A DNA stretch of 62,815 nucleotides, filler included, from Rhabdomonas costata (GCA_019059605.1; 36 parts of 36 records of this genome joined end to end with filler, not necessarily neighbours in it); one strand, 5' to 3'; positions 5,258 through 55,831 are shown, numbered from the whole stretch's first letter. Program-made: numbers and translations. Notes: a model not told the origin generated them from the sequence alone.

Positions 5258-5389
5258 GGGGCAGCGGTTCCCATTTTTCGTCAAGACTTTAAGCATGCAT
5301 TTCGCCGCAGAGATGGGGGGTCCAATCGACTTGGAAATTCCTCGAATCACATGCTTAAAGTCTTGACGAAAAATGGGAACCGCTGCCCC
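5258..5389. repeat. Perfect 40-bp inverted repeat with 52-nt spacer (MITE-like, nonconventional-intron-like, or fold-back artefact)
   Basis: 5258-5297 GGGGCAGCGGTTCCCATTTTTCGTCAAGACTTTAAGCATG is the exact reverse complement of 5350-5389. Confidence 0.9.
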
Positions 5390-34782: not shown

Positions 34783-34867
34783 TTTTCCCCACTCTGCCTC
34801 CAGTTTTGGTCATGGAGATTTTGCGTTGGTCTCACCATGACCAAAACTGGAGGCAGAGTGGGGAAAA
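34783..34867. repeat. Perfect 33-bp inverted repeat running to the contig end
   Basis: 34783-34815 is the reverse complement of 34835-34867; 19-nt loop. Confidence 0.9.
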
Positions 34868-37747: not shown

Positions 37748-38463
37748 GTCTGCCTTGCCGTCTCCCCTATCTGTCACCTTGTACTCTCCCTTTCGTTTTT
37801 TCTGTGTCTTGCTTTCCCGACGGATCCCGTTGAAGTTCGTACTGGAAAATGCAAGGGGCGCTGCGAATGATCAGTGCCTGTTATGTGCTTGCAGTGTGGT
37901 GGAGTGCCTCCTGCATACATATTTTTTGTATGTGGCTGGTTTATATCTTGGTTACAGCTTACACCTTTTTAGAGCCACACACGGACAGAGATGAGTGACA
38001 ATTTTCGCGCATGTCGCTGCGTTGTCAATTTTTGAAGAGCTGTGAGGTGGTCAAGAGCTGTCGTGGAGAAGTTACAGTAATGTGATGAATTACTGTAGTA
38101 GATTGGCAGAAACATTTTAAGGGTTTTGACCGCGCTGTTCTCATTTTTTGAAGGCTTGGGACGCCGGCTGTGCACCTTGATATCCACGCACACATGCTGT
38201 CCACGGCGCATCAACCCAGGTGTGGTTTTTCCCGGGTCGATTAATATGATTCCTGCTTGTAGTCAAAGAGCGCAGTGGGTCTCTGTGGCTTCTGGTGTGT
38301 GCGTGTGTGTGTGCTGTGTCCTTTCAAATGCGTGTTTTCATGCATTTGAAAGGACACACCACANNNNNNNNNNNNNNNNNNNNNNNNNNNNNNNNNNNNN
38401 NNNNNNNTTAATTAATTAANNNNNNNNNNNNNNNNNNNNNNNNNNNNNNNNNNNNNNNNNNNN

Positions 38464-43706: not shown

Positions 43707-44760
43707 GCGTGTGGGGTCCGTTGGTCGTACGTTGGTTCATGTGTGCTTCTGTGTCAGGGTCTGTGTCAGGAGGTGTGTCAGGAGTTGGAGTGGGTCGTTG
43801 TGTTGGTCTCTGTCTCTGTAACCATGCCGAGTCTCTGTTGTGGGTCCTTGTGTTTGCGTCTCCTGTTGTTGTGTACGGTATCATGGGTGGTGTTGGTGCT
43901 ATGGACTCTGTGTGTGTTGCTGTGGATGTTGCCTCTTACCCATGTTGTTCTGTTTCTGTACCCGTAGCTGTATCTGTTCCTTCTGTACCTGTTCCTCTTA
44001 CTCTATACGTGTGTGTATCTGTTCTTGTTGTTACCGTGTGTGTACCTGTTGTTGTTAGTGCTTGTGCTGTGGATGTTGTTGGCCTGATGGTGTGCTGGTT
44101 GTTGGTTGTTGGTGTTGGTGTTGGGCTAATCGGCGTTGGTGGTGTGGTGGTAGGGCTGGTGGTTGTATGTGCTTGGTGTGCTATGGTGGTGTCAGTGCTT
44201 GTGTCTCTTCTTTAGTGTCGTAGGGTGTGTTGGTGTTACGGTGCTCGTGTTAGTGGTAGGATTGGTGTTGTGTTGCTGTCTCATGCTCTGTCTCATGCTA
44301 TGTGTCCTGCTCTGTGTTATTGCTTCTGTTTCTGTCTCCATCTCCATCAACCATGCTCTTTGTGTGTAGTGTTGTGTCAGTGCTTCTGTCTGCTGCTGTT
44401 GGTGTCAAGGACTGTGTGATGGATTCGTGTGTTTCGCTCTCCTACCAGGTGTCTTCGTGTTCTCTGTGTCTGTAGCGATGGTGTTAGGGTCTGGATGTGT
44501 CGATGTTGGTAGCGCTGTCTCCATGGCTTCACGTGTTCCTGTTCTTGATGCGTAGGGTGTCTTGAGGTGCGAAGGGTGGTGTTGTGTCGAAGGATGGTGT
44601 CATGGCTTGCTGATGTGCGTATTCTTGACGGCTGTAGCATGGTGTGTTGTGTCGTTCGTGTCTCCGAGTCGAGGGGTTCATGCTTTGAGGGGTTCGTGTG
44701 GTGAGGTGAGGGTGTAAGGGTGTGAGTTGAAGGGTGAGTGAAGGCGTAAGGTGTCAAGAT
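43707..44760. other. About 1 kb extreme G/T (plus) / A/C (minus) strand-skewed low-complexity region
   Basis: Dominated by GTT/GTG/TGT words with no clean tandem period; unlike any other contig in the window. Confidence 0.85.
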
Positions 44761-44792
44761 CCAACCAGCTTTGAGAGTGAGAAGGCATTCCT

Positions 44793-45259
44793 ACCTGCGG
44801 TGCTGAACCCACTCCTACGGCATGCCCTTACGACCATGCCTTCGTGATGCCTTAAGTGAACCCTTGAGTGAGGTATTCGCTGTGGCTACGCCCGGACGGA
44901 GCATGACCGTACGCACCTAATGGTGGGGGAGGGCATGCGAAGTGACAGGTGGGGTAAAAGATGTTTATGCTGGTCGTGACTCGCTGCGCTCGTCACTCCC
45001 TAGATGCGTTGTTCAGTCGCTCCCCGCTACGCGGTACGCTCCTTCACAGCAATGGGTAGAACGCTGATGTAAGGATGCCATCTCGTACCTCGATGCCATC
45101 CTTCCATCCTACTCGCTCCGCTCGTGCCTTCTGTCACTCTCCTCTCATTCTCGCTATGCTCGTATGGCGGGGAGTGAGGGACGTAAGGGAAGAAGAAAGG
45201 CATTCAGTCGTCACATTCGCTACGCTCGTATTCCTCCTCCTGGTCACTTCGTTCCTAGG
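44793..45259 (-). promoter_or_regulatory. Cluster of about 9 GNA-triloop DNA hairpins, several with tandem G-A pairs (ssDNA-structured region, function unknown)
   Basis: Minus-strand hairpins at 44793-44801, 44814-44820, 44884-44892, 44976-44996, 45010-45048, 45071-45103, 45111-45125, 45150-45162 (ATA loop variant), 45217-45227 and 45239-45259. Confidence 0.7.
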
Positions 45260-45455
45260 TCGACTCTCAACATTCGCTATACATCAGTCGAATAACTCAG
45301 GTATCAAGACTTCCTTCCTTCTTCTATACACGTGTCACTTCTCTCCACACCCCCCNNNNNNNNNNNNNNNNNNNNNNNNNNNNNNNNNNNNNNNNNNNNT
45401 TAATTAATTAANNNNNNNNNNNNNNNNNNNNNNNNNNNNNNNNNNNNNNNNNNNN

Positions 45456-53759: not shown

Positions 53760-54089
53760 GTAGGCCACAAGAGAATGCCATCTGTATCGCCATACGCGCT
53801 TTGCATGCCTATGTATCAAGTGTATTTTCTGAAATGTGTGAGATATTCCGACATCTCAGGAAAACTGGTGGACAAAAGGCAGCCAGTGGCAATGGCTGGG
53901 ACATTGACATTGACCTCAAGTCAGTGAACAAAAACACTCCTTAGGAGGTTGAGGATTGGGTGTCTGGAGCCTATGCAATGAAGCAAGAGTGCAGCGATCC
54001 TTCCTTTATTTGTGTGAAGGAGATCAATTCACACAAATAAAGGGAAGGATCGCTGCACTCTTGCTTCATTGCATAGGCTCCAACCCAAC
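53760..54089 (+). mobile_element. Possible heavily decayed RT remnant (motif A region)
   Basis: GWDIDIDLKSVNKNTP*EV resembles the Penelope-type motif A D-x-x-S-x-x-x-N-I-P-x-x-E; contains stops. Confidence 0.25.
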
Positions 54090-55730: not shown

Positions 55731-55831
55731 GGGGCCTCTTGTAAGGGGGGGGGGCCTTAAACGTTTAGCACCGCCATATGTTCAGCAGTGCTAAACGTTT
55801 AAGGCCCCCCCCCCCAAAAAAAAGAGGCCCC
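55731..55831. repeat. Imperfect hairpin of about 100 nt (MITE-like) in an intron
   Basis: GGGGCCTCTT..G10-CCTTAAACGTTTAGCAC / GTGCTAAACGTTTAAGG-C11..AAGAGGCCCC. Confidence 0.85.

Follow-up and report, generated by a model that had tools for sequence, protein, structure and literature searches.

A one-strand cluster of small hairpins with tandem G.A mismatches on an orphan contig of Rhabdomonas costata, and its possible role as a single-stranded DNA signal

The window analysed here (positions 1-62815) is the whole 62,815-nucleotide stretch of Rhabdomonas costata DNA (GCA_019059605.1), which is composed of 36 separate, unplaced contigs of 1637-1650 bp each, ordered approximately from the longest to the shortest. 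The 35 linkers between them are identical (N44-TTAATTAATTAA-N44, the 12-base word being a six-frame stop), and, since the window is made of joined contigs and is not one locus, a feature found to span a linker must be an artefact. One of these contigs carries, within a non-coding stretch of 300-480 bases, seven to ten small hairpins on one strand (H1 to H10), most of which combine a three-base loop with tandem mismatches in which GA stands opposite GA. The hairpins and the contig that holds them are listed below, with Watson-Crick pairs given as WC and each GA/GA mismatch as a tandem GA.

45239..45259, minus strand: H1, CCTAG-GA-AC-[GAA]-GT-GA-CCAGG; 6 WC, 1 tandem GA, 1 mismatch
45210..45234, minus strand: H2, G-GA-ATAC-GA-GC-[GTA]-GC-GA-ATGT-GA-C; 5 WC, 2 tandem GA, 1 G.T, 1 mismatch
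45149..45163, minus strand: H3, AC-GA-GC-[ATA]-GC-GA-GA; 3 WC, 1 tandem GA; core variant, loop not GNA
45111..45125, minus strand: H4, AC-GA-GC-[GGA]-GC-GA-GT; 4 WC, 1 tandem GA; bare core module
45071..45103, minus strand: H5, 33 nt, AAGGATG-G-CATC-GA-G-[GTA]-C-GA-GATG-G-CATCCTT; 12 WC, 1 tandem GA, one G/G mismatch
45010..45048, minus strand: H6, 39-nt nested hairpin, CCGC-[GTA]-GCGG at its tip; 11 WC, 2 tandem GA
44972..45000, minus strand: H7, GG-GA-GTGAC-GA-GC-[GCA]-GC-GA-GTCAC-GA-CC; 9 WC, 2 tandem GA
44893-44883, 44820-44814 and 44801-44793, minus strand: H8, H9 and H10, GGC[GTA]GCC, CC[GTA]GG and ACC[GCA]GGT; stems of 2-3 bp
43707..45355, no strand assigned: the whole hairpin-carrying contig, 1649 bp, bounded by the linkers
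43707..44770, minus strand: CA-rich, T-poor tract of 1064 nt (A 39%, C 34.5%, G 16%, T 10%), with no open reading frame (ORF)
44771..45355, minus strand: motif-rich, purine-leaning hairpin domain, with one-strand words and an excess of long-range inverted 11-mers

An earlier note, made from the sequence alone, had listed these ten hairpins, and all of them are present on the minus strand at the positions it gave. H1 to H7 are all exactly symmetric, without bulges, and hold ten tandem GA/GA mismatches within 288 nt of the minus strand (44972-45259), with G.T wobbles at only two positions. A GNA triloop caps six of the seven (H3, with ATA, is the exception), and the middle base of the loop does vary over A, C, G and T, as that note had said. 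Four of the ten tandem mismatches lie in CGAG on both arms, one in CGAG/CGAA, one in TGAA/TGAA and four in mixed contexts, and two besides the CGAG/CGAG ones have pyrimidine-GA-purine on both arms; H6 also holds one 3x3 loop (GTA/GGA) flanked by G.A. The stems that obey this GA rule are varied (GTGAC/GTCAC, CATC/GATG, AC/GT, TGT/ACA and CCGC/GCGG), although the claim that the stems are different in sequence was only partly borne out: H1, H5 and H6 are unrelated to one another, whereas H2, H3, H4 and H7 share the core ACGAGC(G)NAGCGA (45217-45229, 45151-45163, 45113-45125 and 44981-44993, respectively). H8 to H10, taken alone, are of a size that chance supplies.

The pattern is genuine, belongs to one strand and greatly exceeds what chance would supply. 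Triloop hairpins with at least three WC pairs enclosing a tandem symmetric mismatch were counted for 12 mismatch types, and the minus strand gave five for GA/GA and none for each of the 11 other types, while on the plus strand the mirror type, TC/TC, alone scored. The background of GA/GA triloop hairpins in the other 35 contigs, both strands included, is 0.08 per 585 nt (0.08 to 0.14 across mismatch types), and 2000 dinucleotide-preserving shuffles gave a mean of 0.21, none of them reaching five. The strand-specific structural grammar proposed earlier, with GA/GA as the sole tandem mismatch enclosed in minus-strand stems, is matched in density neither by shuffled sequence nor by ordinary contigs of the window. 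GNA triloops closed by at least two WC pairs are also in excess (nine versus 2.7 +/- 1.6 expected, with 6 of 2000 shuffles reaching nine), and GNA accounts for 8 of the 25 triloops of the region versus 6.3% in the background. Inverted 11-mers with at most one mismatch number eight, versus 1.6 +/- 1.2 expected (0 of 200 shuffles reach eight), although their pairs cross one another and, therefore, do not form a single nested fold.

The same asymmetry is seen in the short words of the domain. AGCG is found 13 times on the minus strand of 44771-45355 and never on the plus strand (2.2 expected), and AGCGA, the most over-represented 5-mer of the domain, seven times versus none; CGAG (9 versus 0), CGACTGA (3 versus 0) and AGTGAC (4 versus 1) follow the same bias. 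The heptamer GCGNAGC occurs five times on the minus strand within 44885-45225 and is absent from the plus strand of the contig, with 35 further occurrences in the other 35 contigs (both strands summed), none of which contains the longer core ACGAGC(G)NAGCGA.

To judge by its composition, the segment is probably DNA of foreign origin, either viral or mobile, or DNA specialised in some other way. In symmetrised dinucleotide signature, the hairpin contig deviates by 0.23, versus a mean of 0.065 and a maximum of 0.122 among the 35 other contigs, and the hairpin domain is more deviant than any of 140 size-matched 585-nt windows taken from them (delta of 0.23, with a maximum of 0.178 among those windows). 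Its AA/TT value is 0.77 (minimum of 0.94 among the 140) and its TA value 0.95, versus a mean of 0.52 elsewhere, only one window of the 140 being as high. A domain that lies outside the dinucleotide signature of its neighbours fits foreign or strongly constrained DNA, without saying which of the two. The distinct replicon proposed in the earlier note was thus supported in part, because the contig is a compositional outlier that fits either such a replicon or a strongly constrained segment, but no tie to a mitochondrion, an episome, a rolling-circle element or an HUH Rep protein was found; that note had also considered that the contig might match a known bacterial or phage contaminant, and BLAST against phage and plasmid records gave no match.

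The rest of the contig offers little to place it. The tract 43707-44770 is built of ACAC-type words and short degenerate repeats in which AAA and CCC are strongly depleted, and the contig shows an extreme CA/GT strand bias. All six frames of the 1649 bp contain many stops, no Pfam family was found in the two open frames that were scanned (43709-44215 and 44380-44790), and no similarity to the other 35 contigs of the window was detected. The contig ends in a G6 run (45350-45355, minus strand); in the whole window, runs of at least eight G (or C) are about 20 times more frequent than expected (56 versus 2.6), and T runs and TG/CA runs are in excess too. In five other contigs, one end has, at it or close to it, a self-complementary stretch (5258-5389, 34783-34867, 38310-38363, 53956-54088 and 55731-55831; 54-142 nt with 77-90% identity), and these stretches look like fold-back artefacts of assembly or amplification.

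The contigs of the window look eukaryotic and largely non-coding (about 50% G+C, observed/expected ratios of 0.54 for TpA and 0.77 for CpG), with no ORF longer than 287 amino acids. A Pfam scan of 148 ORF translations (16 + 132), out of 202 stop-to-stop ORFs of at least 95 amino acids, gave no family at threshold, and the two matches below the curated cut-offs were Treslin_N (E 0.0076) and Vac17 (E 0.0006). Neither transfer RNA (tRNA) genes nor telomere-type repeats were detected in the window, and Rfam covariance models gave no match at gathering score, the best sub-threshold one on the hairpin contig having E = 4. A kinetoplastid minicircle motif was considered and discarded, its only match (with one mismatch, on another contig) being at chance level, as 26 of 100 shuffles contained one.

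The core of these hairpins is not confined to this contig. Arrays of the 15-nt module AC-GA-GC-GNA-GC-GA-GT are present in viruses, in prokaryotes and in environmental DNA of no assigned origin, at 281 loci or more. Two copies of ACGAGCNNAGCGA lie 25-55 nt apart in 42 viral and at least 119 metagenomic loci, and paired copies of ACGAGCGNAGCGA, in which the first loop base is fixed as G, were found in at least 120 prokaryotic loci from many phyla (L186 onward; actinomycetes, Bacteroidota, Myxococcota, Acidobacteriota and haloarchaea are among the matches listed). In the 161 viral and metagenomic matches listed, for which the loop was unconstrained, G is the first base of the majority loop in 136. 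In these same 161, the base that follows AGCGA is G in 117 (40 expected), GT follows in 61 (10 expected) and at least three further pairs can form in 21 (2.5 expected); the corresponding figures for the 120 prokaryotic matches listed are 87, 24 and 6 (30, 7.5 and 1.9 expected), the next base completing the CGAG block in those 87. That pairing carries on past the G.A mismatches in sequences unrelated to one another favours reading the module as a hairpin; such extension, more frequent than expected by chance, and the recurrence of the module suggest that this structural unit is either convergent or mobile. In viral sequences, 21 matches to the pattern of the H5 core were obtained, and the inner 21 nt of H7, with another loop base (GTGAC-GA-GC-GTA-GC-GA-GTCAC), are found once in each of three related viral contigs of about 60 kb (L162:2443-2463, L163:3265-3285 and L164:2856-2876), in AT-rich intergenic DNA and with a second hairpin adjoining.

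Some of these loci resemble the Rhabdomonas cluster in more than the module. The closest analogue in design is L042, a fragment of a tailed phage whose ORFs are of the large terminase, lysin and tail types, and in which about 1 kb of gene-free, purine-rich DNA (L042:9430-10400, minus strand) directly follows the large terminase gene; on one strand, 600 nt of this DNA contain ten GA hairpins that differ from one another, among them GTTGAAC-GAA-GTTCAAC, and runs of GCAGGCGAAGC are found as well. L024, taken here as giant-virus-like, codes for a DUF5757 protein and a family-25 glycosyltransferase and has heterogeneous one-strand arrays in two intergenic gaps. An intergenic array of the module is also found in the bacterial locus L128 (which has a sorting domain presumably belonging to type IX secretion), and microsatellite-like runs of module words are found in L037, which comes from a viral record of 191 kb that also has RNase III and PIF1-like ORFs. 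In two gene-free metagenomic contigs (L068:1315-1964 and L097:1100-780, minus strand), T-poor, CA-rich text surrounds copies of ACGAGCGCAGCGAGT. Both share the sequence TTTTTTA(CG)8TATACGAT, after which GC-rich hairpins occur, and the opposite end of L097 bears it once more, inverted and imperfect; this sequence had no match in the viral and prokaryotic collections and is absent from the hairpin contig. Since L068 and L097 are no closer to the contig by shared 9-mers than other loci, their likeness to it is only qualitative. A 17-kb metagenomic contig (L082) carries 18-nt tandem repeats of the core at 125-249 and 2384-2568, at the starts of two long open frames of the opposite strand, where they are possibly in-frame coding repeats.

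Under the standard DNA model, the minus strand is more stable than the plus strand in H5 (-10.4 versus -6.3 kcal/mol, with a z-score of -5.6), H6 (-4.7 versus -3.4 kcal/mol) and H7 (-4.6 versus -3.4 kcal/mol). For the bare core ACGAGCGGAGCGAGT, the DNA parameters of ViennaRNA give 0 kcal/mol, and about 0 for the small hairpins; the melting temperature given for GCGAAGC in a review on DNA mini-hairpins is 76.5 C (PMC13037366). On published thermodynamics of this kind, it would be DNA rather than RNA that folds. The fold may form in vivo.

The explanation that best fits these observations, although it should be taken as tentative, is that the cluster is a strand-specific signal that would form when the DNA becomes single-stranded, on a foreign or specialised segment. 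In such a case, replication, transcription or a single-stranded intermediate would open the duplex, and the exposed, purine-leaning minus strand would fold rapidly into seven compact hairpins in a row. A three-base loop with a sheared G.A pair (of the GNA type in six) would close every one of these, and tandem sheared G.A pairs, for the most part in C-GA-G contexts, would hold the stems together. The complementary strand, which faces TC/TC and TNC in the same places, would be unable to fold likewise. By analogy with the documented mini-hairpins that mark a strand for a primase or a polymerase, the cluster might work as an initiation or processing signal of one strand.

Several observations weigh against this explanation. 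One core is present as copies in four of the seven hairpins, which therefore lack independence, and the effective number of independent events falls to about four. Plain triloop hairpins with at least three WC pairs are not enriched (7 versus 8.8 expected), and standard nearest-neighbour folding, as DNA or as RNA and for both strands, gives z-scores of -0.3 to -1.5, which are not significant; with values of about 0 kcal/mol for the mini-hairpins, the DNA energy model cannot judge their stability. Tandem G.A pairs are stable in RNA as well. CACACA is present in 120 copies in the other 35 contigs, 24 of which have at least three, and such CA-rich words, being common there, argue for a host nuclear origin of the contig. 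No replication, transposition or polymerase gene is linked to the cluster on the 1649 bp, and none of the comparisons run gave a homologue of the contig, which precludes a test of covariation: a sensitive blastn search against the pattern loci returned no more than two matches, both weak and due to low complexity or vocabulary, no pattern locus stands out by its shared 9-mers, and neither a near-identical H6 nor the AGCGAATGT/CGACTGA compound was found in viral contigs. Finally, many of the pattern matches are plain tandem repeats and some may be coding (64 of the 120 prokaryotic arrays listed lie in an open frame of at least 600 nt).

A functionless by-product is the alternative that survives best, although it seems rather unlikely. 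It would consist of a scattered and diverged short repeat of AGCG-N-AGCG / CGAG units, which are quasi-palindromic with G.A mismatches by construction, so that the hairpins would merely follow from the vocabulary. In its favour, four copies of one 13-15-nt core are present, this core can also be read as AGCG directly repeated at one-base spacing, and tandem arrays of the core with periods of 12-25 nt do exist in many metagenomic loci; furthermore, the neighbouring kilobase is degenerate low-complexity DNA of the CA type and short unplaced contigs are typically repeats. However, the domain shows no tandem periodicity, the stems of H1, H5 and H6 are unrelated and yet follow the GA/GNA rule, the hairpins keep their exact symmetry without bulges, and the core is missing from all the other contigs of the window.

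It is unlikely, although conceivable, that the domain is nuclear regulatory DNA of the type described for human AUTS2, acting as duplex or transiently opened, with AGCGA, CGACTGA, AGTGAC and GGCAT as protein sites and the hairpins modulating access to them. The strong over-representation of one-strand words, several of them in compound arrangements, and the excess of inverted 11-mers are consistent with this idea, for which the CGAG blocks reported in a promoter offer a precedent (PMC10085684). On the other hand, an orphan contig of 1.65 kb allows neither a gene nor a transcript or promoter to be located, the spacing rule of AGCGA-quadruplexes does not describe its AGCGA tracts, and its dinucleotide signature is unlike that of the rest of the window.

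More doubtful still is a structured non-coding RNA, or part of a transcript, produced from the minus strand, in which tandem G.A pairs and small purine loops would be stabilising too. The minimum-free-energy RNA fold of the minus strand does keep H5, H6 and H7, with a z-score of -1.49 versus -0.64 for the plus strand, but neither score is significant and no Rfam family reached threshold. GNRA and UNCG tetraloops are usual in RNA, whereas all closing loops here are triloops (GNA in six of the seven), without any GNRA or UNCG tetraloop, and G.T wobbles are limited to the two positions in seven hairpins. This preference of RNA for GNRA or UNCG tetraloops is also mentioned in the mini-hairpin review (PMC13037366).

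The placement made in the earlier note, as an origin or terminus of a mitochondrial chromosome, of a rolling-circle (HUH Rep) element or of a parvovirus-like genome, is very unlikely: asymmetric replication does produce GT/AC-like strand skews, which that of the contig resembles, and the contig is a compositional outlier, but its 1649 bp show stops in six frames and contain neither mitochondrial protein, ribosomal RNA or tRNA gene pieces nor an Rfam match, a Rep or a polymerase (with Pfam scanned in two frames), its skewed half is ACAC-type low complexity depleted in AAA and CCC, which looks microsatellite-derived and not like a mutational skew, the hairpins are on the A+C-rich and not on the G+T-rich strand, and the contig ends do not overlap.

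If the reading as a signal of single-stranded DNA is kept, a further-reaching and quite improbable version of it would make the cluster a piece of the control region (an origin, a priming or a packaging signal) of an unrecognised extrachromosomal or viral replicon in this eukaryote. It would then belong to a cross-domain class of heterogeneous one-strand G-A/GNA arrays, in which the tailed-phage L042, the giant-virus-like L024 and the gene-free environmental L068 and L097 (both T-poor) might also be included. Were this true, the class would represent a general, protein-independent way of marking one DNA strand. The chemistry of the DNA mini-hairpin and of the sheared G.A block has been well studied, while the natural sites known are a handful. 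Should such clusters be real signals in single-stranded DNA, they would reveal where replication starts, where priming occurs or where DNA is processed, at sites that escape ordinary palindrome finders as well as folding programs; the standard model scores the core at 0 kcal/mol. The practical gain from this window alone is modest, the contig being an orphan, and the literature searched gave no report of a eukaryotic assembly with heterogeneous hairpin arrays of this kind (a literal search for the motif returned only primers and unrelated text).

Among known systems, satellite DNA with G.A fold-back, of the centromere type, can be set aside, since its head-to-tail unit is absent from 44771-45355; a tandem-repeat or satellite origin was rejected with Tandem Repeats Finder, which found no array there, and no offset peak was seen. 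The Ssn-related motifs, which are cut by GIY-YIG single-strand nucleases, are similar in being short DNA hairpins recognised as single strands and dispersed or clustered in many phyla, according to PMC11893778, but the degenerate pattern given there has no match in the 36 contigs on either strand; the 1649 bp of the locus covered here, in which a flanking ssnA (GIY-YIG) gene might have been sought, hold no long ORF. AGCGA-quadruplex regions share with the domain the strand preference of AGCGA (seven versus none); however, the rule stated in PMC5442326 requires four tracts 1-20 nt apart, and the minus-strand tracts found here (45278, 45221, 45155, 45117, 45021, 44985 and 44881) are 32-104 nt apart and give no match to the regular expression. 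The phage N4 promoters have a 5-bp stem with a GGA or GAA loop, unlike H4 (GGA) and H1 (GAA), whose stems have 2 bp before the G.A pairs, and they are read by a virion RNA polymerase, whereas the contig has no polymerase gene and no similarity to phage records.

The arrays of L042 and L024 are alike in that their hairpins are heterogeneous, contain this core module and occupy a single purine-rich strand, over several hundred bases to 1 kb of gene-free DNA, although they belong to gene-dense viral genomes, and the Rhabdomonas contig, which has no gene, shares only short words with them. The CGAG block, composed of a C:G, a sheared G:A, an A:G and a G:C pair, was described in the human AUTS2 promoter region (PMC10085684). 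CGAG/CGAG is found in H3, H4, H5 and H7 (inner), and CGAG/CGAA in H2, and in both systems one strand folds; AUTS2 has consecutive CGAG repeats around one long loop, in contrast to the single blocks seen here in separate hairpins capped by triloops.

The nearest precedent in chemistry is the DNA mini-hairpin d(GCGNAGC) of Hirao and colleagues, whose natural sites include the complementary-strand origin of phage G4, the ssiA site of a broad-host-range plasmid and the early promoters of phage N4 (PMC13037366). In the documented cases, the hairpins withstand both nuclease and single-strand-binding protein, and they designate one strand for use by a primase or a polymerase. Each known site has between one and three hairpins and lies on a replicon or promoter that is single-stranded and defined, and whose primase or polymerase is known. 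The cluster described here differs in the number of its hairpins (seven to ten), in their mixed stems with tandem G.A extensions and in its location on an orphan contig of eukaryotic type, to which no enzyme can be linked. The exact heptamer GCGNAGC on one strand, the loop closed by a G.A pair, the free middle base and the location in non-coding DNA are, nevertheless, common to both, and the array is built from two published DNA structural motifs, the GCGNAGC mini-hairpin and the CGAG block (PMC13037366 and PMC10085684).

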